Source: an uncultured Clostridia bacterium
Lineage (GTDB): Bacteria > Bacillota > Clostridia > TANB77 > CAG-508
DNA: 64,000 bases
Direction: 5' to 3'
Assembly: GCA_947589015.1 (NCBI GenBank)
Contig: CANPZF010000005.1
Coordinates: 4,341-68,340 of the forward strand
The position numbers were made by a program, and so were the translations under genes. Position 1 is the first letter of the stretch; each line of letters begins with the position of its first letter. This document shows, in pieces, positions 458 through 12,164 of this stretch. Below the pieces are notes generated by a model, which saw nothing but the letters and a program-made list of their open reading frames with translations, did not search any database and had not been told where the DNA came from.

Positions 458-2039
458 TTATTTATACCATGTTTCTATTCCATAAAATGGCTGAAACCAA
501 TTAGGAGATATTTCTCCTACTAAAGACGTATTATATGCAATTGTCTGTTTATTGTTATATAAACTAATACATGGTATATCAGTTTTATATATTTCTGCTA
601 ATCTTTTATATTTTTCCTTAATAACATTGTCATCTGTTGTATTTTTTACCTCTTGCATAATTTCTTTAACTTCATCATTTTGATAATTAGATAAATTATT
701 ATCTCCAAAAAATGTAGTTAAGTCTGGACTCGTAGAAAGATACATACTACACAAAATCATGTCGTAATTCTTAGCTGTTAAAGCTGCATCATATTGTTGG
801 TCTGTATATTGCAAAATATTAATTCTTATACCTTGTGCCTCTAATTGGGTTTTTATATTTTCAGCCACTGCAATATGATTACTATTAGACGCTTTTACTA
901 CAAGATTCAATACTAGCCTTTGTGTTCTGTAGTTTTCTGTAATTTGCCAATATCCATTTCTATATGACCATTTATTATCTACCAGTAATTGTTTTGCTTG
1001 GTCCAAATTATATCCTGAACTTGCATCTTGTTCTTGATATACCCATGAACCATAATCCAAAGGAAAGCTTGAAGTATAATATTTATTTTGATAAACACTT
1101 GATATAATATTAGTTTTATCTATTGAATATGATATAGCTCTTCTAACTTCTTGTTTTGCTAAAAAATAATTTCCGCATATTTAATGCTATAAAATCATGT
1201 TCTCTTCCTTTTACTTCTTTAGGCGTATATCCTATTGTTCCTATATATTCTTGTATATTTATATTAGATGTATTTACTATATCTATGTTTCCAATTTTAA
1301 ATGCATTGTATAATTCTCCTACAGATGTATATATATTTATGTATATCTTATTCAAACTCAATTGTGTTTCTCTATTCCACCAGTTAGAGTTTTTACTTAG
1401 AGTAATATAATTGGATTGTACATCTGTTACTGTATACATTCCTATCCCTATTGGTACAATCCCTGTATCATTAAAGTCTTTGTCATCATAAAATGTCTTT
1501 GATAATATTGGAAAAGTTAAATTATATTCAAAAAATGGTACTTCTGTATCTAAAATGAGTCTTAAAGTATAATCATCTGTAATTTCTACATCAGTAACAT
1601 GTTGCACATTATATGAATAAATTGATGATACTTCTTTTAGTTTTTGAATTGTATAGAAAACATCTGCAGATGTAAACTTTTCACCATTAGACCATTTTAC
1701 ATTTTCTCTTAATTTTATAATATATGAATTATCATTTTGTTTAGCCCATTCCTTTGCTAAATCTGGCTCTGCTTTACAATCTGTAGATATTTTTACTAGT
1801 GGTTCATAAATTAAATTTGTTATATCTTGTATATTCTTATTTTTACTAAGTATTGGATTAATTGTATCAAATTCTGCAACTCCTACCCTTATTTCTGTTA
1901 TTTTTTCTTGTGTATTTGTAGTTGTATTAGATTGTGTTTCATTTTGTTCCTTTTCATCATTTTTTATTTTGAAAAATGAAAAAATCATAATTCCTATTAC
2001 AAATATTATAAATATATATTTAAAAAAATTAGACTTCAT
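458..2039 (-). pseudogene. ABC transporter substrate-binding lipoprotein, family 5 (oligopeptide/nickel OppA-like). It is interrupted by a single-base frameshift in an A6/T6 homopolymer at 1161-1166.
   Basis: Two ORFs (1143..2039 and 458..1060) carry the N- and C-terminal halves of one SBP5 protein. They share a signal peptide, a PLVK motif and EVRRAISYSIDK. Both frames are open across 1106-1183. Removing one T restores NMRKLFLAKQEVRRAISYS. Confidence 0.75.
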
Positions 2040-2870: not shown

Positions 2871-3908
2871 TTAATGTTTTGATTTTTTAGCTTTTGATTT
2901 TATATATATTATTCCTAATGCCATTATTATCAAAACTACTAATAAACAAATTGCCCATAAATTTGAACGATTAGCTCCTGTTTTTATTGATGTTATTACT
3001 TTGTCTATTATTGAACCTCCAGATTTTTTATCCTCTGCTGTATTTGTATTTCCAGCTGCACCTGAATTTTGGGTATTTGAACTTCCTGAACCTCCAGCAT
3101 TAGTTGAACCTGAATTTCCTTGATTTGTATTTCCTTGCCCTGGATTTTCTTCTCCTGAGTCGCCTTGTCCTGGGTTTCCTTCTCCTGAGTCGCCCTGTCC
3201 TGGATTTCCTTCTCCTGAATCTCCTTGTCCTGGATTTTCTTCTTCTGAGTCTCCTTGTCCTGGATTCTCTGAACTAGTTCCTCCAACACTTGTTCTTAAT
3301 ATATCATCATCTTCTATTATAACTGGTGTTACCTCATGTGAAAGTGATACGGTTTTTGTAAATTCTTCGTCTGTTGATGTATCTTTGTTTCCATCACTTC
3401 CTACTGGTTGTATCAAAAGCGTTGAATTTTCATTTTCGTCTGTTTTATTAACAAGCGATATTGTTCCTACCTTAATATTATCTATATTTACAGTATCTGT
3501 TAGTTGATTCAATTCCTTAGTTCCAACGTAATATAAATTTATTCTTTCTAAATCTCTATTAGTTTGAACATCTGTACCTTCAAACATTCTAACATCTTTA
3601 AATTCTTCTGTTCCATCATTTAAATTAGTTGACCATTCGAATTTTGCATCGTAATTACTTGCTACATCTACATTTAATCCTATTTGGAAACTTGCTATAC
3701 TTGAATCATCAGCCATTCCTAAATATACATCAACTTTAGTAGGATCTTGTGATTGTTGTTGCAAAATTACACTTGTTTTATCTCTAGTTACAAGCATTTT
3801 AGATTTATTATTACTATTATTAGTAGCTAAAACAAAGGTCATAAGAGCAGCAAGAATTATAATAAGTATTATCATAAGTATAAATTTTGTTTTTTTATTT
3901 AATTTCAT
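2871..3908 (-). CDS. Surface-anchored protein: N-terminal signal/TM, a beta-rich (possibly cohesin-like) domain, five tandem ENPGQGDSGEG repeats, and a C-terminal hydrophobic segment with a KSKAKKSKH tail. The C-terminus resembles a cell-wall sorting signal with a degenerate SIKTG motif.
   Basis: Seen in the ORF translation. The RBS GGAGGA is upstream of the ATG at 3908. There is a 33-bp tandem DNA repeat at 3127-3270. Confidence 0.6.
   Translation of the reverse strand: MKLNKKTKFILMIILIIILAALMTFVLATNNSNNKSKMLVTRDKTSVILQQQSQDPTKVDVYLGMADDSSIASFQIGLNVDVASNYDAKFEWSTNLNDGTEEFKDVRMFEGTDVQTNRDLERINLYYVGTKELNQLTDTVNIDNIKVGTISLVNKTDENENSTLLIQPVGSDGNKDTSTDEEFTKTVSLSHEVTPVIIEDDDILRTSVGGTSSENPGQGDSEEENPGQGDSGEGNPGQGDSGEGNPGQGDSGEENPGQGNTNQGNSGSTNAGGSGSSNTQNSGAAGNTNTAEDKKSGGSIIDKVITSIKTGANRSNLWAICLLVVLIIMALGIIYIKSKAKKSKH
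3127..3270. repeat. 33-bp tandem repeat, about 4.3 copies, encoding the ENPGQGDSGEG stalk.
   Basis: The unit ttcttctcctgagtcgccttgtcctgggtttcc is repeated head-to-tail with few substitutions. Confidence 0.8.
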
Positions 3909-3958
3909 TTTGTCCTCCTTTCAGATTCTAAATTTTATTAATATGTGTATTTTTACTT

Positions 3959-3992
3959 CTGTAAAGTAATGTTAAACACATTACTTTACAGT
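3959..3992. terminator. Perfect 14-bp stem-loop between the M60 peptidase gene and the downstream surface-protein gene. It is followed by a T-run on the plus strand.
   Basis: CTGTAAAGTAATGT taaaca CATTACTTTACAG followed by tttttattttttac. It is canonical in the plus orientation only, although both flanking genes are on the minus strand. Confidence 0.5.
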
Positions 3993-4001
3993 TTTTATTT
4001 T

Positions 4002-7000
4002 TTACTTTGAGCTGTTATTTATGTTTGTTAATGTAATGTCTTGTAAACTACTTGGAAGAGTTGTGATTAAAGTATCACTAACTAGTCTTTCCCCTTCATT
4101 TGTTAAGGCATTATCTACACGATATAGCTCTACTCTTACTTTTCCTTTTCCTAGTGCTTCCTCAATACGTTTATAATCCTCGTTGTCTTTTTGTTCTCCA
4201 TTTTCCATTACATAATTTCCATCTAAACCAAGTTCTTTTTGTTCAACTACATATACCCATTTACCATCACTTGTTTCACCTAAGTTTGCTTCTCCTGGAT
4301 CTGGTGCTAATATAATTTGGTAACCATTTAACATTTTCCATTCACCTGTTGTTGCATCTTGATACCATAATTTTGCTACGTTATATGCTGGATTTCCTTT
4401 ATATGTACCTGTAAATATTATTGAACCTGCTGGTATTGAATAATCTTTTGATTCATCATAAGTAAATTCTGATGCGAGTTTACCTATTGAACCAGTTTCA
4501 TTAAATTCAACATTGTCTCCTGTTTGTCCTAATAAATCTATTTCACTTATATTAACTTGAGTATCATCAATTATAAGTTTAACATATGAGCAGTCATAAT
4601 CATAATTATATATTGTTTCTTTTCCATCTATTATTTGAGCAAATTCTATTACTTCTGGTTTTGTTATTTCTTCTTCAGAGCTTATCATATTTGCAAAGAA
4701 GTTACCTATTGCTGAGAATGTTCTCTTGATTACACCTGGTTTTTCTACTTTTTTAACTGTTGTCCAGTTATTTCCATCTGAACTTACTTGGATTTCATAA
4801 TAGTCAAATTTCTTTCCTGAATATTTAAGTCCAACTAATTTCTTAACTTCTGGTAATGATATTGTAATTTCTGCTTTTCCTTCTTTTACTTTTCCACTAA
4901 ATGCTGTTTCTAAATCTCCATCTGCTATAGTTGGAACTGCTGAAACTGTTTGTTCAAAGTCTGATGTTTCTACTGTATTGTTTTTGTTTTTATCTGTGTA
5001 TTTTGCAGTTGTATCACTATCTGATGTCATATTAGTTGTTACTTCCCAGCCTTTTTGAGATATTTCACCTAAATGACTTACTTTTACTTCATCTAACTCT
5101 TTTCTTGCTATTTCATATAAGAATTTATCATAAGCAACTACTGTGTAAGTAAATACTCTATTATTTATTGTATCTATTGTATCTGTATATGTAACATTTG
5201 CATTAACTGTTCCATCTGCATTTCTTGTAGGTTCAACAAATGCTATTGGTCTTGAGATTACTTGATCATTTGACCTATAACTTCTTATTATTTCATAACC
5301 TAGAACTCCATTTGGATCTATACCTTCACCTGTTATATTTAATGAGAAGTTTACTTTGTTTTCTGATACTCTATTATTTTGTGCATTTGTTATAGAAGCT
5401 TGTAAATTAATATTTTCTAAAGCATATAAAGGATAATTTCCTTCTAATATATAATTTCTTGATTCATCATTTACATACCAAATTGCCTTTTCTTCTTCGT
5501 CCCATTGTTCTGCATATTTAATTGTATCTTCATTTGGTATCATTCCCCATTTTTTAAAGAACTCTAATACATTCTTTTTGGTTGCTGCACATGCTAATCT
5601 CATTAAATTATTGTCAGAATCTGAATCTATTTTTAATGCCACTTTATTATCATGTGTTGGTGTTGGAGCTTTTGAAACTATTCTTGTTTTAGAATCTATA
5701 TTTCTTGCATAAGTATCCATTCTAGCATAAATTGAATTATTAAATTGATCTTTTTGTGTTGTATATTTCTTATAATTATATCCATCTGTATCATATGCTA
5801 AATGTAACTGCCAATATAATCCTAATTGTGTAAATACATTTTGTGCTTTTCCTGTTTTTCCTGATGTTACTTTATCATATACATCTTTATAGTTGAAACG
5901 TACTGTATTTCTTGTATTATCTGTTTGAGCTAAAATTGAGAAATAGTTATTTGTAACTTCTCCATGTACATATGCTTGTTGATTAATTACATGTCCAATT
6001 TCATGAGCAATTCCCCATCCAAAGTAGTTTCCTTGTGAGTCTGCTGTTTCCTTTCCATTACTATCTACTTTCATTGGAACACCTTTTGCTAAATCTTTTA
6101 CTTCGTTCCACTGAATTCCTATATGTAATCCTCCAGCATACATAAATGCTCTTCCTGTCATTCTCATACATCTAATATTTTGTCTTGTTCTTGGATATGT
6201 ATTATTTGAACCATAAGTATTTGTATCTTGACTAGCTCCTTGTTTTACTAATCCTTTTTGACTATAGAATAAATCCATCATCTGATCCATTGCTGTTAAT
6301 GAATCATATAGTGCATCTGCTCTTTGTTGAAGAGTTGGTTTTCCACCAATTTTTTCTGTCAAACCGTCATATATTTGTTTTGAAGAAACTGAATACATCA
6401 TTGGGTCTAATACAATTTCAGTTAATCCTAATAGACAGTCTGATATTCCTTCTTCATCTGCACCTTTGAATGCTTTACATTCATCTCCATTATGTCTTGT
6501 TTCTAATGAATTTACTACTTTATCTAATTCTGTTACATATGCTAATACTGCTGCTTTTTTCTCTGATTCTGTCATTGCTACTCTATTGCCTGTTGCTGGA
6601 TCTTCTTTACTACTTAAATCTAATACTGGTATTTCTATTCCACCAGATACTCTAACCGCATAGTTTCTATCAATATATCTAAATGGATCATCATCTTTTA
6701 AACCTGTATAGTTAATGTATAAAGAACCACCTTTTTCTCTACTTGTTGAAATCATTTCTGGAATTGTTACTTTATTTATACCAACTTGTAGATTTTGTAT
6801 TACTGTTTGTTGGAAATTTCCTGCTTCAGCACGCCATTGTGTTGCAATTAATTGTAATCTTGTAGATTCTCCGACATTTTTATATGGGTTTCCAACATAT
6901 ATTGTTATTTCTTCTCCTGGTACTGCTCTTGCTGCTACTCCTAATGGTTGGAATCCATTTAAGCTTCCTCTAAATTCTATATGTGAATCATACCAACTTG

Positions 7001-10000
7001 TAACTTGGCTATTTATTTTAGTTACTTTTCCTAAATCTGCATTTTCTAAAAGAAGTCTTGCTGTTTGTAATTCATCTAATAATGCTTGTTTATCTGGATG
7101 GTAATCTCTTTCTCCTGCACTTCCACCTATTTTTTCAATACCCGCATTTAACTCTGATTCTAATGCTGATATCTTATCTTCAACTTTTTTCTTAGCATCT
7201 GCTGTGCTTATATCATCAGCTAGTTCTAAATGCATTGCATCTTTAAATAATGCATTTATTCTTCCTTCTACATCATCATATTCATAGAATCCCATTTCTG
7301 CAATTGTTATATCTCTATTTCCTGTGCTTGCATTTCCTATTGAAACAACTATTCTATCTGTATAAATTGGTTGTTGTAGTTTTACAGCTGTATATTTATT
7401 TCCTTCAGCATCTTTTTTTGTAACAACTTGTGATGCATCCACTCTAACTTGTTTACCTTTATTAGCAGAACCTTCTCTACAATCATTATACCAAACTCTA
7501 GCATAACCAAAGTCACCATTCCATTGTACTTTTGCTAATGTTATATAATTCATTTCATAAGCTTTATCAAACTCTACTATTACACCTTTGTCTGGACCCA
7601 TGTAGAATCCACCGAAATCCCAGTCATCTACTTGTAAATATGAGCCAAAACTATTATCTGCTACACCTTTTGCTGAACCTACTATAACTTGTCCATCTTT
7701 AGTATCTAATGGGCTATCTTTCATATTTCTGTTATCTGCTTTGACAAAAGTTATATTTTTAATATGGGCTGATAATACACCTGCTCCATTAGATGTATTT
7801 ATTCTCTTATATGTTGGTAATTCAACTTCTTGTACAGCTAATGTACTTGCTGTAGCTGTTTGTGAAGGATCACTTATACCTAAACTGTTACATGCAAAAA
7901 CTCTTATTGAGTATTCTGTTGCTTCACTTGCTAATCCTGTAATTGTATAAGTTGTTTCTTTTATTCCTATTGTTTCATCTCTTTTTGTTACTGGATTATA
8001 TTTAACTTCTACTTGTGTTGCTCTCTTAAATTCTTCATTACTATTTGTTGGTTTATATTCTACTATATAACTTGTAGCTCTTGGGTCTGCATTCCATGAA
8101 ACTTTTATTTGTTGATATCCACCTTTTAGTGTTACTCCAGTAGGTGCATTTGGTTTGCTTGTTGGCATTGGTTTTACTGGATATTCTTCACTATATTGAC
8201 TATACCAATCTCCATTAACAGAACGTACACTTACATTATATACTGTATAATCATTATTTGGATCCTGATCTAATAAGTCTTTTATTGATTTGCCGTTAAA
8301 TTGTTCTATTTTTATTTCATGTCCATCTACATCAAATAATTCGCTTACTTTTCCCTTTCCTTTGAAGTTAGCTGTTACTAATACTTGATATCCTGTTACA
8401 TTTACTACATTGTTCCATTTTACCATAAAACTTTCTTCTGTTATAGATGCGTCTATATCAGCTTTTCTAAGTTCTGGTATACTTAATTCTGGTTCTGGGA
8501 TTTTATCTTCCATACCATTTAAAAATTCTACTTTTGATATATCTGCCAATTTGTTACTTGTTGTTCCTGTAACATTTATTATTACTCTTTTTACAGCTAT
8601 AGCATTTCCAAAGTCAACTACAATTGTTCCATCTTTTTCAATCTTGGCTGTTCCTCCAGATATTGGTTCGTAATTTATCTTTGTTGATTGTGTACTATCA
8701 TTAATTACAGTTTGTTGCTCTGCTACTTTATATATTGATTTTATTGATGCTGTTTCTTTTTCTGTTTCTCCTATTTTACATTCAATTTCTACATCTTTTC
8801 CTGTTTCATTATTATGTCCATCTACTATTATAGTTCCTTCTGTTATATTGTTATTTATATTTGAAGATGGTGCTATGCTTAATAATTGTGTTTCTGCTGT
8901 ATCTTCTTCTATATCTATTGCAATACTTATTGGGTTTGTATCTGATATATCTTCATTTTTTGCTGGTTTTAAAGTTACATGTTTATCATTGTTTTCAAGT
9001 ATATCATCTATAGTTCCTGAACTAGTTGAATCTACTGCTCCTGTTTGAGCTTTTGTTTCAACTTTAGTTGTATCTATATTTGTTAGAAATCTTGCTGATG
9101 CACCAATAAATGAATGTCCCTTATTTAATGCTGCATAAGATATATCAGCAATATCTACTACTCCATCTTTATTTAAGTCATATGTATAATCATATATATT
9201 ATGATTAGGTTCTGTATTTCTCTTTCCTTCAATATTATTTACTATATCTGTCACATCATCTAATGTAATATTTCCGTCTTTATTAACATCACCTATTCCA
9301 ATAACTCCTGTTCTTCCTTTTTTAGTTGTTTGTTCCCCTTCTGGACCTAACATTGAATTTCCATTGCTATCTACTATTCCTAATGCATCATAACCATTAG
9401 TTAAATGTAATTCAGAAGTTGTATTTCCCTTTATTTCTACATTTGCTTGGGTAAACGTCTGATATCCCTTTCCTGATATAGTTAATGTGTACATACCTGC
9501 TGGCAATTCATTAAATGTATAGAAAAGTTGTTTTTCTTTTTCTATTCCATTTGCTTTTGTTGGTGCTCCTTCGTCATATAGTCCACTTTTCTTTAAAGTA
9601 ACTGTTAGATCATTTGCTGACATATTTTTTTGAGGGAGTCTTAAATCTATACTAAGATTAAGTTTCCCCTTTAATTTTGATGTGTCAAGTTCTTGTGTTT
9701 CAGGTTCGCTTTCACCTTCACCATTGTCGTTGTCTTCATCTTTGCCATTGTTTTCACCCGCATTTACTTCAGTTGGTTGGTTGTTGTCTATTGTACTTGT
9801 CACACCTCTTACTTTTGCCTGTTCTTCTGATGCTGATTTTTTTGTTGCTTCATCTTTTTTCTCTTCTGATGTATTGTTTTCAGTTCCTAAAGTGTTTTGT
9901 TTTTCTTGATTTGTTTCTTCTTCAGGTTCTGCTTCTTTTTTTGGCTCTTCTGTTTTCTCTGAATTGTCTTTTGATGAAGCACTTTCTTCGTTAGTAATCT

Positions 10001-10094
10001 CATTTATTACTGATTCTGCTAATACTGCTGTATTTCCACCAAGTAGCGTAATTATAATGAACATTACAAGTACGAATTTCAATGTTTTTTTCAT
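4002..10094 (-). CDS. Giant secreted multidomain M60-like/enhancin-type zinc metallopeptidase (putative mucinase) with an internal type-I dockerin, FN3 and carbohydrate-binding-like modules.
   Basis: The HEXXH...E motif reads GWGIAHEIGHVINQQAYVHGEVTNNYF, preceded by MYAGGLHIG. The dockerin calcium-binding pair is DVNKDGNITLDD and DLNKDGVVDIAD. The signal peptide is MKKTLKFVLVMFIIITLLGGNTAVLA. The RBS GGGAGGA is 7 nt before the ATG at 10094; the ORF track starts 11 codons earlier. There is no LPXTG. Confidence 0.8.
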   Translation of the reverse strand: MKKTLKFVLVMFIIITLLGGNTAVLAESVINEITNEESASSKDNSEKTEEPKKEAEPEEETNQEKQNTLGTENNTSEEKKDEATKKSASEEQAKVRGVTSTIDNNQPTEVNAGENNGKDEDNDNGEGESEPETQELDTSKLKGKLNLSIDLRLPQKNMSANDLTVTLKKSGLYDEGAPTKANGIEKEKQLFYTFNELPAGMYTLTISGKGYQTFTQANVEIKGNTTSELHLTNGYDALGIVDSNGNSMLGPEGEQTTKKGRTGVIGIGDVNKDGNITLDDVTDIVNNIEGKRNTEPNHNIYDYTYDLNKDGVVDIADISYAALNKGHSFIGASARFLTNIDTTKVETKAQTGAVDSTSSGTIDDILENNDKHVTLKPAKNEDISDTNPISIAIDIEEDTAETQLLSIAPSSNINNNITEGTIIVDGHNNETGKDVEIECKIGETEKETASIKSIYKVAEQQTVINDSTQSTKINYEPISGGTAKIEKDGTIVVDFGNAIAVKRVIINVTGTTSNKLADISKVEFLNGMEDKIPEPELSIPELRKADIDASITEESFMVKWNNVVNVTGYQVLVTANFKGKGKVSELFDVDGHEIKIEQFNGKSIKDLLDQDPNNDYTVYNVSVRSVNGDWYSQYSEEYPVKPMPTSKPNAPTGVTLKGGYQQIKVSWNADPRATSYIVEYKPTNSNEEFKRATQVEVKYNPVTKRDETIGIKETTYTITGLASEATEYSIRVFACNSLGISDPSQTATASTLAVQEVELPTYKRINTSNGAGVLSAHIKNITFVKADNRNMKDSPLDTKDGQVIVGSAKGVADNSFGSYLQVDDWDFGGFYMGPDKGVIVEFDKAYEMNYITLAKVQWNGDFGYARVWYNDCREGSANKGKQVRVDASQVVTKKDAEGNKYTAVKLQQPIYTDRIVVSIGNASTGNRDITIAEMGFYEYDDVEGRINALFKDAMHLELADDISTADAKKKVEDKISALESELNAGIEKIGGSAGERDYHPDKQALLDELQTARLLLENADLGKVTKINSQVTSWYDSHIEFRGSLNGFQPLGVAARAVPGEEITIYVGNPYKNVGESTRLQLIATQWRAEAGNFQQTVIQNLQVGINKVTIPEMISTSREKGGSLYINYTGLKDDDPFRYIDRNYAVRVSGGIEIPVLDLSSKEDPATGNRVAMTESEKKAAVLAYVTELDKVVNSLETRHNGDECKAFKGADEEGISDCLLGLTEIVLDPMMYSVSSKQIYDGLTEKIGGKPTLQQRADALYDSLTAMDQMMDLFYSQKGLVKQGASQDTNTYGSNNTYPRTRQNIRCMRMTGRAFMYAGGLHIGIQWNEVKDLAKGVPMKVDSNGKETADSQGNYFGWGIAHEIGHVINQQAYVHGEVTNNYFSILAQTDNTRNTVRFNYKDVYDKVTSGKTGKAQNVFTQLGLYWQLHLAYDTDGYNYKKYTTQKDQFNNSIYARMDTYARNIDSKTRIVSKAPTPTHDNKVALKIDSDSDNNLMRLACAATKKNVLEFFKKWGMIPNEDTIKYAEQWDEEEKAIWYVNDESRNYILEGNYPLYALENINLQASITNAQNNRVSENKVNFSLNITGEGIDPNGVLGYEIIRSYRSNDQVISRPIAFVEPTRNADGTVNANVTYTDTIDTINNRVFTYTVVAYDKFLYEIARKELDEVKVSHLGEISQKGWEVTTNMTSDSDTTAKYTDKNKNNTVETSDFEQTVSAVPTIADGDLETAFSGKVKEGKAEITISLPEVKKLVGLKYSGKKFDYYEIQVSSDGNNWTTVKKVEKPGVIKRTFSAIGNFFANMISSEEEITKPEVIEFAQIIDGKETIYNYDYDCSYVKLIIDDTQVNISEIDLLGQTGDNVEFNETGSIGKLASEFTYDESKDYSIPAGSIIFTGTYKGNPAYNVAKLWYQDATTGEWKMLNGYQIILAPDPGEANLGETSDGKWVYVVEQKELGLDGNYVMENGEQKDNEDYKRIEEALGKGKVRVELYRVDNALTNEGERLVSDTLITTLPSSLQDITLTNINNSSK

Positions 10095-10217
10095 GTTTTC
10101 ATCCTCCCTTTTTTTCATATTTAACAAAACATCTTTATTATACCATTTATCATAAATTTTAACAATATTTTTCTATTTTTTAATCTAAAAAAGGTTACTG
10201 GATAAAAATAGAAATCC

Positions 10218-12164
10218 TTATATAAACAATTGATATATCAAATTTGTAAATATACACAATACAATTCCACAAACAGTTGGTATTATAAAACTAATTATTG
10301 CCCACTTCCATCCACCTGCTTCTTTTTTTATTGTAAGCAATGTAGTAGTACATGGAAAATGCAATACAGTAAATATCATCACATTAATTGCAGTTAAAAT
10401 AGTCCAACCATTTTGAATTAAAATCTGTCCAATAGTTAATGTATCTTCTATGTTTACCAATGCTCCACCTTTTAAATAACACATTAATATAATTGGTAAT
10501 ACAATTTCATTTGCCGGTATACCTAATATAAACGCTGTCAATATATATCCATCTAATCCCATTAATTTTGCAAATGGCTCTAAAAAATTTGCAACTATTG
10601 TAAGTAAACTATCCCCATTAATTCCAATATTAGCAAACAACCATATTACTAAACCTGCCGGTGCAGCTACTGCTACAGCCCTTCCCAATACAAATAGAGT
10701 TCTATCTAATATTGATCTTACAAATATTTTTCCAAATTGTGGTTTTCTATATGGAGGTAATTCTAAAATAAATGATGATGGCATCCCTTTAAGTATTGTT
10801 TTTGAAAGGATTTTTGATACCAATAGTGTTAAAAATATCCCTAATAATATTATTCCTATAACTACCAAAGTTGCTACAAATGAAGCCCCAATTCCTTGCA
10901 TCATTCCTGCCATAAATATAGTTGCAATTGTTATTAAAAATGGGAATCTTCCATTACACGGAACAAAATTATTTGTTAATATTGCTATTAGTCTTTCTCT
11001 TGGTGAATTAATTATTCTGCATCCTACTACCCCTGCTGCATTACAGCCAAATCCCATACACATAGTTATCATTTGTTTTCCTGTACAACAACACTTTTTA
11101 AATACTCCATCCATGTTAAAAGCAATTCTAGGCAAATACCCCAAATCTTCTAAAAAAGTAAATAAAGGGAAAAATATAGCCATAGGTGGTAACATAACCG
11201 ACACAACCCAAGTTAAAGTTTGATATACCCCATCTATTAGCAAATTAGATAGCCAGTGTGGTAAATTAATCCAATTAGCAAATACTAATAATTTATCTTG
11301 AATCCAATTAAACATTGTAAACAATAATTGTGAAGGATAATTTGCTCCTATTATCGTAAGCCAAAAAATTATTCCTAAAAATAATAGCATTATAGGTATT
11401 CCCCACTTTTTTGAGGTTACTATTTTATCTATTTTTCTATCTCTGTTACTGTAATTTTCATCTTCAAATGTACAAACTTCTTTACAAATTTTTTCAGCTT
11501 TTTTTATAGTTTTTTCCAATAATCCCTCTTGTTGTAAAATTTCTATTGGATTTTCTGTATTAGTTCTAACATTTTCTATTCTATTAGGCATAGGATTAAT
11601 TTCATTATCACAAACTTTTTTTAATACTTTTAATAAGTGATTTAACGTTTTTCTTTTTCTTGCAATAGTTCCTACTACTGGAACTCCTAATTTTTCTTGT
11701 AAAGCATCTAAATCTACATTTATTTTTTTCTTTTTTGCTTCATCCAATAAATTTACGCACACTATTACCTTTGTTGCAATCTGCATTATTTGAAACACCA
11801 AATTCAAATTTCTTTCCAAGCATGTAGCATCCACAACTACAATCACACAATCTGGATTTCCATTACATATATAATTTCTCGCAATCTCCTCTTCCTCTGA
11901 ATTTGATAAAATAGAATATGTACCTGGTATATCAACAAATAAAAATCCTGTGTCATTATATACACACTTTCCAGTTGCATTGGCTATTGTTTTCCCCGGC
12001 CAATTTCCTGTATGTTGATGCATTCCTGTCAAACTATTAAAAATAGTTGATTTACCTACATTCGGATTTCCAGCTAATGCAATTGTATATCCATTTTCTA
12101 TTTTTAAACTTTCAAAATCTTCTGTTAATAAATTTGTTCCTGTTGATGATTTGGTAAGACCCAT
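10218..12164 (-). CDS. feoB: Ferrous iron transporter FeoB.
   Basis: The GTPase G1 motif is AGNPNVGKST, followed by a polytopic C-terminal permease. Length is 648 aa. RBS AGGAGGAA. Confidence 0.9.
   Translation of the reverse strand: MGLTKSSTGTNLLTEDFESLKIENGYTIALAGNPNVGKSTIFNSLTGMHQHTGNWPGKTIANATGKCVYNDTGFLFVDIPGTYSILSNSEEEEIARNYICNGNPDCVIVVVDATCLERNLNLVFQIMQIATKVIVCVNLLDEAKKKKINVDLDALQEKLGVPVVGTIARKRKTLNHLLKVLKKVCDNEINPMPNRIENVRTNTENPIEILQQEGLLEKTIKKAEKICKEVCTFEDENYSNRDRKIDKIVTSKKWGIPIMLLFLGIIFWLTIIGANYPSQLLFTMFNWIQDKLLVFANWINLPHWLSNLLIDGVYQTLTWVVSVMLPPMAIFFPLFTFLEDLGYLPRIAFNMDGVFKKCCCTGKQMITMCMGFGCNAAGVVGCRIINSPRERLIAILTNNFVPCNGRFPFLITIATIFMAGMMQGIGASFVATLVVIGIILLGIFLTLLVSKILSKTILKGMPSSFILELPPYRKPQFGKIFVRSILDRTLFVLGRAVAVAAPAGLVIWLFANIGINGDSLLTIVANFLEPFAKLMGLDGYILTAFILGIPANEIVLPIILMCYLKGGALVNIEDTLTIGQILIQNGWTILTAINVMIFTVLHFPCTTTLLTIKKEAGGWKWAIISFIIPTVCGIVLCIFTNLIYQLFI

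Follow-up and report, generated by a model that had tools for sequence, protein, structure and literature searches.

In a 64,000-nucleotide stretch of DNA from an uncultured Clostridia bacterium (contig CANPZF010000005.1 of assembly GCA_947589015.1, positions 4341 to 68,340, hereafter the window), two adjacent genes encode a giant secreted M60-like metallopeptidase carrying an internal dockerin and a small partner protein that appears to be built for attachment to the cell envelope. The gene pair probably serves to display the protease at the cell surface in uncultured gut Clostridia, and our favoured interpretation, held with moderate confidence, is that it constitutes a dedicated surface-display cassette in which the dockerin of the peptidase contacts a beta domain of the small protein. 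Strict conservation of the gene order over deep divergence, a natural fusion of the two products, a dockerin retained in every peptidase homologue and the anchor architecture of the small protein carry this interpretation, and the structural identity of the presumed receptor domain is its least certain element.

The peptidase gene (4002–10094, minus strand, as for all features of the pair given below) codes for a multidomain protein of 2030 amino acids (aa) lacking an envelope anchor of its own. The partner gene (2871–3908) encodes 345 aa, comprising a signal peptide, a cohesin-like beta domain, a repeat stalk and a C-terminal sorting signal. A preliminary description of this DNA, made from the letters alone, had counted 2031 residues for the peptidase; the open reading frame stands but, starting from the ATG at 10094, it yields 2030. 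The same two products are present in the public gene call on an identical metagenomic contig, with the peptidase again 2030 aa in length.

Conservation of the Gene Pair

Relatives of the small protein are encoded in 35 genome loci, and in all of them a peptidase orthologue lies immediately upstream of the small gene and on the same strand. These loci derive from metagenome-assembled genomes (MAGs) of uncultured Clostridia, the majority of rabbit-gut and the remainder of mouse-gut origin, and identity to the window proteins ranges across them from 73% down to 37% for the peptidase and falls to 27% for the small protein. The preliminary description had made the pairing depend on conservation of this adjacency, and the order of the peptidase and small genes was found to hold in every related context examined, with the small gene and a dockerin-bearing neighbour co-occurring without exception.

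The arrangement extends to remote relatives. The small proteins P0042, with an SLH anchor, and P0047, with an LPQTG motif, are encoded 36 and 11 nucleotides (nt), respectively, downstream of a dockerin-bearing M60 gene (contexts L040 and L041). The most distant peptidase homologues, at 30–34% identity, are each followed by an abutting gene for a protein of 279–421 aa of similar design; beside four distant peptidases, two of the small genes match the family profile (E values 6e-12 and 6e-9) and two more are linked by BLAST to those. The gene downstream of the peptidase homologue P0085, which is cut by the contig end, has a Thr-rich stalk and a comparable layout, and similarity of its product to the small-protein family was not detected.

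A natural fusion of the two proteins also occurs. P0083 (L042 2281–8787, JGI metagenome 3300010163) is a single chain of 2168 aa in which PEGA, dockerin, fn3, M60 and F5/8C domains are followed by a domain of the small-protein family (aa ~1762–1904) and then by SLH repeats. Alignments of the latter domain gave E values of 2e-6 to P0042, 1e-9 to L046d and 2e-7 to a core member of the family. Because the gene order holds over deep divergence and a Rosetta-stone fusion exists, comparison of the sequences provides strong evidence that the two products act together.

The M60 Peptidase and Its Dockerin

The preliminary description had interpreted the large protein as a secreted M60 peptidase lacking an anchor, and the sequence bears this out, with a signal peptide at the N-terminus, a match to Pfam Peptidase_M60 and, at the C-terminal end, neither a transmembrane segment nor a wall-binding module. 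The signal peptide (10017–10094, aa 1–26, MKKTLKF...NTAVLA followed by ES) was deduced from the translation, and its cleavage site was read by eye from a K-rich n-region, a hydrophobic core and the VLA sequence. The motif GWGIAHEIGHV...GEVTNNYF is present, as described earlier, with HEIGH starting at aa 1364. The catalytic part (5544–6020, aa 1359–1517) includes HEIGH (aa 1364–1368) and the downstream Glu in GEVTNN, and it matches Pfam PF13402 with 43.3 bits (cutoff 25.8), the alignment covering only the C-terminal half of the model (positions 126–275). The HE[IV]GH...E zinc site is retained in all 31 aligned orthologues. The only matches of the peptidase among PDB sequences were 7sci_A and 7yx8_A, both M60 proteins; a publication about the Akkermansia mucinase AM0627 (PMC9325726) refers to the two entries.

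Accessory domains flank the catalytic part. A fibronectin type III domain is located at 7851–8147 (aa 650–748; PF00041, 37.5 bits, cutoff 25) and an F5/8 type C (CBM32-like) domain at 4734–4937 (aa 1720–1787; PF00754, 28.7 bits, cutoff 28.2). Membership of the M60 family, the F5/8C (CBM32-like) domains and the gut origin of the relatives suggest that the substrates would be mucin-type O-glycoproteins.

The dockerin module (9087–9293, aa 268–336) is of type I (PF00404), a class characterised by a duplicated 12-residue EF-hand-like calcium loop (DxNxDGxIxxxD) with a helix after each copy, and both copies are found here. The loops DVNKDGNITLDD (aa 269–280) and DLNKDGVVDIAD (aa 306–317), spaced 37 residues apart, match the dockerin/EF-hand loop pattern; they had been recognised earlier, with residue numbers about 9 too high. 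No second double loop of the dockerin kind occurs in any open reading frame of the 64-kb window. Pfam Dockerin_1 scored 22.8 bits on the full-length peptidase (aa 268–319), 0.1 under the cutoff of 22.9, and the isolated 111-aa segment reached 29.9 bits (E 6.5e-7), over that cutoff. The model also matched 20 of 24 orthologous segments, with a best E value of 8.4e-10. When a profile of the orthologous segments was compared with PDB sequences, the top matches were all dockerins. The best of them was 5lxv_B, a dockerin of Ruminococcus flavefaciens whose crystal structure includes the ScaC cohesin, and the NagH dockerin of Clostridium perfringens (2jnk/2ozn) was also among the matches. The score of the isolated segment, the orthologue matches and the PDB profile results together support the original identification of a genuine type I dockerin.

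Across the orthologues, the second dockerin repeat and its helix are near-invariant (DLNxDxxxxIxDLSYxxxN) and the first loop is degenerate in several lineages, an asymmetry that suggests a single binding face or orientation. The dockerin is present in every retrieved peptidase homologue (P0061–P0087) and is always preceded by an immunoglobulin (Ig)-like domain, either CarboxypepD_reg or PEGA. In the window peptidase, the core of a CarboxypepD_reg-like Ig-type beta domain is located directly upstream of the dockerin (9402–9521, aa 192–231; PF13620, 28.4 bits, under the cutoff of 32.3), and distant homologues carry a PEGA domain at this site. The combination of Ig-like module and dockerin recalls, by analogy, the X-module-dockerin units that bind anchoring cohesins, and the CarboxypepD_reg-like domain is a possible X-module analogue. 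P0085 (L043 254–6361), which comes from a Ruminococcus sp. MAG (GCA_029052815.1), carries an insert of about 70 aa, charged and resembling a coiled coil, between its dockerin repeats GDVDG... and DLNRDGVINLAD, and because of this insert the dockerin is matched neither by Pfam nor by the family profile.

The Small Protein and Its Family

The small protein begins with a signal peptide (3825–3908, aa 1–28 of the translation, with VLA preceding the cleavage site and T following it). An all-beta domain of about 170 aa (3288–3791, aa 40–207) is the candidate dockerin receptor. It is followed by a stalk of NPGQGDSGE(G/E) repeats (3133–3270), then by more linker rich in G, S, N and T, and finally by a C-terminal sorting-signal-like segment (2874–2990) consisting of SIKTGANRS, a hydrophobic stretch of about 21 residues and KSKAKKSKH.

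Two details of the preliminary description needed revision. The N-terminal hydrophobic export segment is real, but its reading as a signal anchor was dropped in favour of a cleaved signal peptide, which is more likely because remote relatives show canonical AxA signal peptides at the same position. The stalk had been described as five copies of an 11-residue ENPGQGDSGEG unit; a repeat stalk is indeed present, but Tandem Repeats Finder resolved a 30-nt unit in 4.6 copies with 88% matches, corresponding to a 10-aa unit.

The beta domain yielded no match in Pfam, NCBIfam or PDB sequences. A word-indexed search provided 21 relatives of the small protein, and when 1.84 billion cluster representatives were searched exhaustively with a HMMER profile, just 39 matched the domain. 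The latter search was also tried as a transitive route to cohesins and failed in that respect, the family closing at 39 proteins with no annotated cohesin among them. In every family member the domain is N-terminal, immediately after the signal peptide, and it is followed by low-complexity stalks or Big_2 domains and then by a lineage-specific anchor. The anchors include xxKTG(A/G)N(R/H)S with a transmembrane segment and a basic tail in the clade of the window protein, xPKTGD or LPQTGE each with a transmembrane segment, DUF11 with SLH, and a plain transmembrane helix; SLH anchors are found in the members P0042, P0049 and L029. An anchoring or display protein would be expected to show just this pattern, its N-terminal domain unchanged and its envelope anchors interchangeable.

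The region between domain and anchor varies as well. Several Big_2 Ig-like domains replace the low-complexity stalk in P0014, P0018 and P0020 (for example, L014 9881–11569), and P0012 carries a FlgD_ig-like domain and PT repeats. Since these elements stand in for the low-complexity stalk, the spacer between binding domain and anchor is freely exchangeable.

At its C-terminus, the small protein shows the tripartite organisation of a sorting signal, in which a short motif with a terminal TG precedes a hydrophobic stretch and a basic tail. The KTG(A/G)N(R/H)S motif is kept in the subfamily of the window protein, and its position equals that of LPQTGE or xPKTGD in relatives; the peptide stretch VITSIKTGANRS is a candidate class B sortase substrate. 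Neither of the anchor hidden Markov models PF00746 and TIGR01167 matched the small protein. Directly downstream of the small gene, four related loci carry a gene for a class B sortase (TIGR03064, 164 and 169 bits, cutoff 153.75), forming a three-gene cassette (L005 10827–11578, L006 8312–9085, L018 11399–12187 and L019 11393–12181). Because these sortase genes adjoin the small gene, they support the interpretation of the KTG motif as a class-B-related sorting signal. The window protein has its closest relatives in L005 and L006, which are independent assemblies, and there the small protein stops directly after ...ETPKTGM and lacks a hydrophobic tail.

With respect to the sortase-like C-terminus proposed earlier, the tripartite layout, its position and the sortase genes of relatives lend support, and SIKTG does not match the (S/P)PXTG motif, to which it had been called close, as it lacks the Pro. 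Judged by its domain organisation, the small protein is built like a display protein anchored in the envelope, and sortase processing is predicted for it.

Is the Beta Domain a Cohesin?

Cohesins fold as a nine-stranded beta-sandwich (jelly-roll), and assignment by fold was taken to mean superposition on solved cohesins. Two AlphaFold2 models of the beta domain were built, one from 20 sequences, with a predicted local distance difference test score (pLDDT) of 77.6, and one from 35 sequences, with a pLDDT of 89.1 and a predicted template modelling score of 0.85. Both models are all-beta. Foldseek comparison with the PDB placed cohesins on top for both (2jh2, 5lxv_A/C and then type II cohesins; E 7e-5 to 1e-3, probability 1.0), and the four best fold matches of the second model were all cohesins. 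Of these structures, 2jh2 is the X82 cohesin-like module of C. perfringens and 5lxv_A/C is the ScaC cohesin of R. flavefaciens. The top fold matches of the small protein are related to the top dockerin matches of the peptidase, 5lxv_A/C having been crystallised with 5lxv_B, and 2jh2 coming from the C. perfringens system of 2ozn. This correspondence between the best cohesin and best dockerin structures is suggestive.

A number of observations weigh against a cohesin-dockerin contact followed by sortase anchoring. Pfam Cohesin PF00963 matched 0 of the approximately 36 family members at E ≤ 1, distant ones included, and an hmmsearch of the family profiles against the PDB found nothing, no cohesin included. 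Hhalign comparison with a single CipA cohesin and with a 5-sequence CipA-type profile, which is narrow and confined to type I, gave probabilities below 1%; a cohesin profile built from a CipA query took in just 11 close relatives. The superposition on cohesins is weak (template modelling scores 0.32–0.48 over both models; for the second model E 2e-4 to 1e-3 and scores 0.35–0.46; root mean square deviation 7–8 Å), and CNA-type collagen-binding domains (CNA N2) and CBM3 modules rank close behind cohesins. In a mirror-tree analysis, the partial correlation of distances with the small domain was r 0.18 for the dockerin versus 0.53 for aa 341–640 of the peptidase. The fusion P0083 retains both the dockerin and the receptor-like domain in a single chain that is anchored in cis, and therefore the role of the dockerin may not be tethering alone. 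As regards the anchor, SIKTG has Ile at the position where LPXTG, NP(Q/K)T(N/G) and (S/P)PXTG have Pro, with just some relatives carrying SPKTG, TPKTG or IPKTG, and the 64-kb window contains no open reading frame with a TLxTC motif, that is, no sortase.

Two regions of the peptidase, aa 150–255 (the Ig-like region) and aa 341–640, which is probably a discoidin-like domain, track the divergence of the small protein better than the dockerin does. We regard the distance-correlation test as uninformative because the dockerin offers a short, noisy segment and a single phylogeny underlies all regions; the pattern may merely reflect segment length. Alternatively, it could indicate a contact surface extending beyond the dockerin.

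The earlier suggestion of a cohesin agrees weakly with the all-beta fold and with the leading rank of cohesins in Foldseek, where the template modelling scores are all below 0.5, and the profile searches against cohesin models do not bear it out. We term the domain "cohesin-like" and do not class it as a cohesin: the sequence says no, and the modelled structure leans weakly towards yes.

Proposed Display Mechanism and Alternatives

A mechanism consistent with these results would begin with export of the 2030-aa M60 metallopeptidase by its predicted signal peptide, the enzyme bringing no anchor of its own. The 345-aa partner would also be exported and, to judge from its architecture, fixed at the envelope through its C-terminal end, most likely by a class-B-type sortase acting at xxKTG or else by the C-terminal helix staying in the membrane. 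Its Gly/Ser/Asn/Pro-rich repeats would push the N-terminal beta domain outwards. The dockerin, positioned after its Ig-like CarboxypepD_reg or PEGA module, would then plug into the beta domain in a calcium-dependent manner, the receptor being a highly diverged cohesin or a cohesin-like domain and each anchor tethering one protease. Strict conservation of the second dockerin repeat alone would be in accordance with a single binding orientation. Finally, the tethered enzyme would cleave mucins and similar O-glycoproteins in the vicinity of the cell in the animal gut, a step suggested by its M60 family, its CBM32-like domains and the fact that the relatives come from rabbit and mouse gut.

The two-gene surface display envisaged in the preliminary description gains from the conserved pair, the fusion and the anchor architecture; a cohesin identity of the receptor is not borne out by sequence. 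A more specific proposal, which we advance tentatively and with somewhat less than even confidence, is that the beta domain founds an unrecognised class of dockerin receptors. These receptors would be either cohesins diverged beyond detection or convergent beta-sandwiches, each matched one-to-one with the Ig-module-dockerin of a giant M60 peptidase in a minimal, vertically co-inherited display system.

The alternative that best survives, although we consider it unlikely, is that the two proteins act jointly with no cohesin-dockerin contact. The small protein would then be an envelope-anchored adhesin or substrate-capture protein with a CNA/Ig-like beta-sandwich, or would bind another part of the peptidase, and the dockerin would bind a canonical cohesin from another place in the genome or serve as a calcium-stabilised structural module. 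The absence of any sequence similarity of the small domain to cohesins, the near-equal rank of CNA N2 collagen-binding domains in the fold search, the distance correlations favouring aa 150–255 and 341–640 over the dockerin, and the retention of the dockerin in the cis-anchored P0083 are all in line with this explanation. Set against them are the joint presence of dockerin and small partner in all contexts examined, the occupation of the four best fold matches of the better model by cohesins, and the fact that the peptidase carries no other recognisable protein-protein interaction module.

It is improbable that the small protein is instead a tethered inhibitor, chaperone or self-protection factor that masks the M60 peptidase near its producer, as in protease-inhibitor gene pairs. 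The genes are tightly adjacent and probably co-transcribed, the P0083 fusion can be read as prodomain-like and the small protein has no annotated function, all of which such a role would accommodate. Nevertheless, stalks that are long and flexible or made of Big_2 domains, together with wall anchors that can be exchanged (sortase signal, SLH), typify display proteins, the domain looks more like a binding module (cohesin, CNA, CBM3) than like any known metalloprotease inhibitor, and both the conserved dockerin and the anchor-less state of the peptidase would be left unexplained. Incidental adjacency, with the dockerin-like segment a partnerless EF-hand-like calcium site, draws on a full-length Dockerin_1 score 0.1 bit under the cutoff and on weak matches to EF-hand models, but it is scarcely credible and was rejected on synteny and profile evidence, given the gene order kept over deep divergence in every context, the natural fusion, the isolated segment scoring over the cutoff, the matches in 20 of 24 orthologues and a PDB profile headed by dockerins and not by EF-hand proteins.

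Intergenic and Neighbouring Sequence

The two genes are separated by a spacer of 93 nt (3909–4001) that holds a 14-bp hairpin and a GGAGG ribosome-binding site, the latter 8 nt ahead of the ATG of the small gene. The hairpin (3959–3991) is perfect over its 14 bp and is followed by a T-run on the plus (antisense) strand only; in the direction of the genes an A-run precedes it and no U-run follows. Its function may lie in RNA stability or processing, or in termination of antisense transcription. A spacer with a strong GGAGG and a hairpin lacking a sense U-run is compatible with co-transcription of both genes, and in distant relatives the gaps between peptidase and small genes are just 1–48 nt. 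A second hairpin (2830–2864), situated between the convergent small gene and a HAD-like gene, is likely to be a bidirectional terminator.

Genes for a FeoA/FeoB ferrous iron transporter lie directly upstream of the peptidase gene on the same strand (window 10218–12164; also L001 1293–3691), and a promoter-like site, TTGTTA-17-TATAAT with TG, is located just upstream of the peptidase start at 10165–10137. An SBP_bac_5 gene, for a family-5 solute-binding protein of the nickel/oligopeptide type, is split into open reading frames of 298 aa and 200 aa (458–1060 and 1143–2039, minus strand). It is probably a frameshifted or interrupted gene and not a single-assembly sequencing error, because public contigs show the identical split. 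The uncultured Clostridia of this lineage have a very low GC content, 26–27%.

Significance

Should the favoured interpretation be correct, cohesin-dockerin-style display would extend beyond cellulosomes, amylosomes and the recently proposed mucinolysomes to single-enzyme cassettes for mucinase-type proteases. It would also explain how an anchor-less protease of 2030 aa is retained at the cell surface in the gut mucus layer. Since the receptor is invisible to the Pfam cohesin model, surveys based on Pfam cohesins, such as those behind the mucinolysome work, would miss such systems, and display of this kind would be more widespread than those surveys can detect. A new protein family, with 39 representatives and none of them annotated, would gain a testable function, and protein engineering would gain a compact, orthogonal plug-and-socket pair. 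In its variable anchors and its natural fusion, the family illustrates neatly how surface attachment evolves in a modular fashion. Should the domain turn out not to bind the dockerin, it would still be necessary to explain why the two genes are so strictly conserved as a pair.

Comparison with Known Systems

Anchoring scaffoldins combine a signal peptide, one or more cohesins, a linker and a wall anchor and lack a catalytic domain; of these properties, the small protein has all but a verified cohesin. The ScaE protein of R. flavefaciens, which counts ScaB among its ligands, provides one comparison. It has a single cohesin, is anchored to the wall by a C-terminal sortase motif and binds the XMod-Doc of CttA (PMC4266597). 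The small protein shares with it a signal peptide, a single binding domain at the N-terminus, a linker and a C-terminal signal of the sortase type, and in both systems the ligand, here the peptidase, has an Ig-like module directly before its dockerin. Moreover, the R. flavefaciens cohesin and dockerin of 5lxv are among the best PDB matches for both window partners. The differences are that sequence comparison fails to identify the window receptor domain as a cohesin, that its ligand is a single M60 peptidase with an N-proximal dockerin and not a scaffoldin or adhesin, that xxKTG occurs here in contrast to LPXTG, and that receptor and ligand are here a fixed gene pair.

In Clostridium thermocellum, ScaD and ScaG (OlpA and OlpC) are anchors with single type I cohesins that attach individual dockerin-bearing enzymes to the cell surface (PMC5141474). 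The window system would similarly employ an anchor with a single binding domain to tether single enzymes with no intervening scaffoldin, and some members of the small-protein family are likewise anchored by SLH. The cohesins of ScaD and ScaG are, however, canonical and serve many cellulosomal enzymes, whereas the window pair is apparently a matter of one enzyme and one anchor, with the enzyme a protease and the anchor a sortase-like signal.

The "mucinolysome" of Limousia includes dockerin-bearing glycoside hydrolases and peptidases that degrade mucin and an LPxTG-anchored scaffoldin, cSca5, with a single cohesin (PMC12997984). Unlike the window pair, it is a multi-scaffoldin, multi-enzyme system with cohesins detectable by Pfam, and M60 is unmentioned in the main text of PMC12997984. 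Both cases involve gut Clostridia, dockerin-bearing peptidases predicted to reside on a wall-anchored cohesin and a context of mucin degradation. The window system differs in being a minimal two-gene cassette from other uncultured Clostridia, of very low GC content, with a receptor that is divergent in sequence.

Non-cellulosomal complexes in C. perfringens, reportedly described by Adams and coworkers in 2008, are said to link glycoside hydrolase toxins through cohesin (X82)-FIVAR-dockerin modules (2jh2, 2ozn). These complexes are cited in PMC12997984 as well. They share with the window pair the setting of host-glycan degraders in animal-associated clostridia and of cohesin-dockerin pairs outside cellulosomes, and 2jh2 heads the fold matches of the small protein, with 2jnk/2ozn among the leading dockerin matches. 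In contrast to the window receptor, which would be a dedicated non-catalytic anchor, the C. perfringens cohesins lie inside enzymes and link these together.

Among the M60-like (PF13402) O-glycopeptidases is AM0627 of Akkermansia, with the structure 7SCI (PMC9325726), and Nakjang et al. (2012) listed Dockerin_1 in 2 M60-like proteins (PMC3267712). The window peptidase has in common with these enzymes the HEXXH...E gluzincin site, CBM32-like and fn3 accessory domains and an animal-gut origin. It differs from the characterised M60 enzymes in its much larger size of 2030 aa, its N-proximal dockerin and its obligatory neighbouring anchor gene. To our knowledge, no neighbouring anchor partner has been reported for the characterised M60 enzymes.

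The principle of attaching dockerin-bearing enzymes to anchored receptors is already established and has recently been extended to mucin degraders. What distinguishes the window system is the fixed gene pair, the N-proximal dockerin, a receptor invisible at the sequence level, the xxKTG signal and the low-GC lineage in which they occur.

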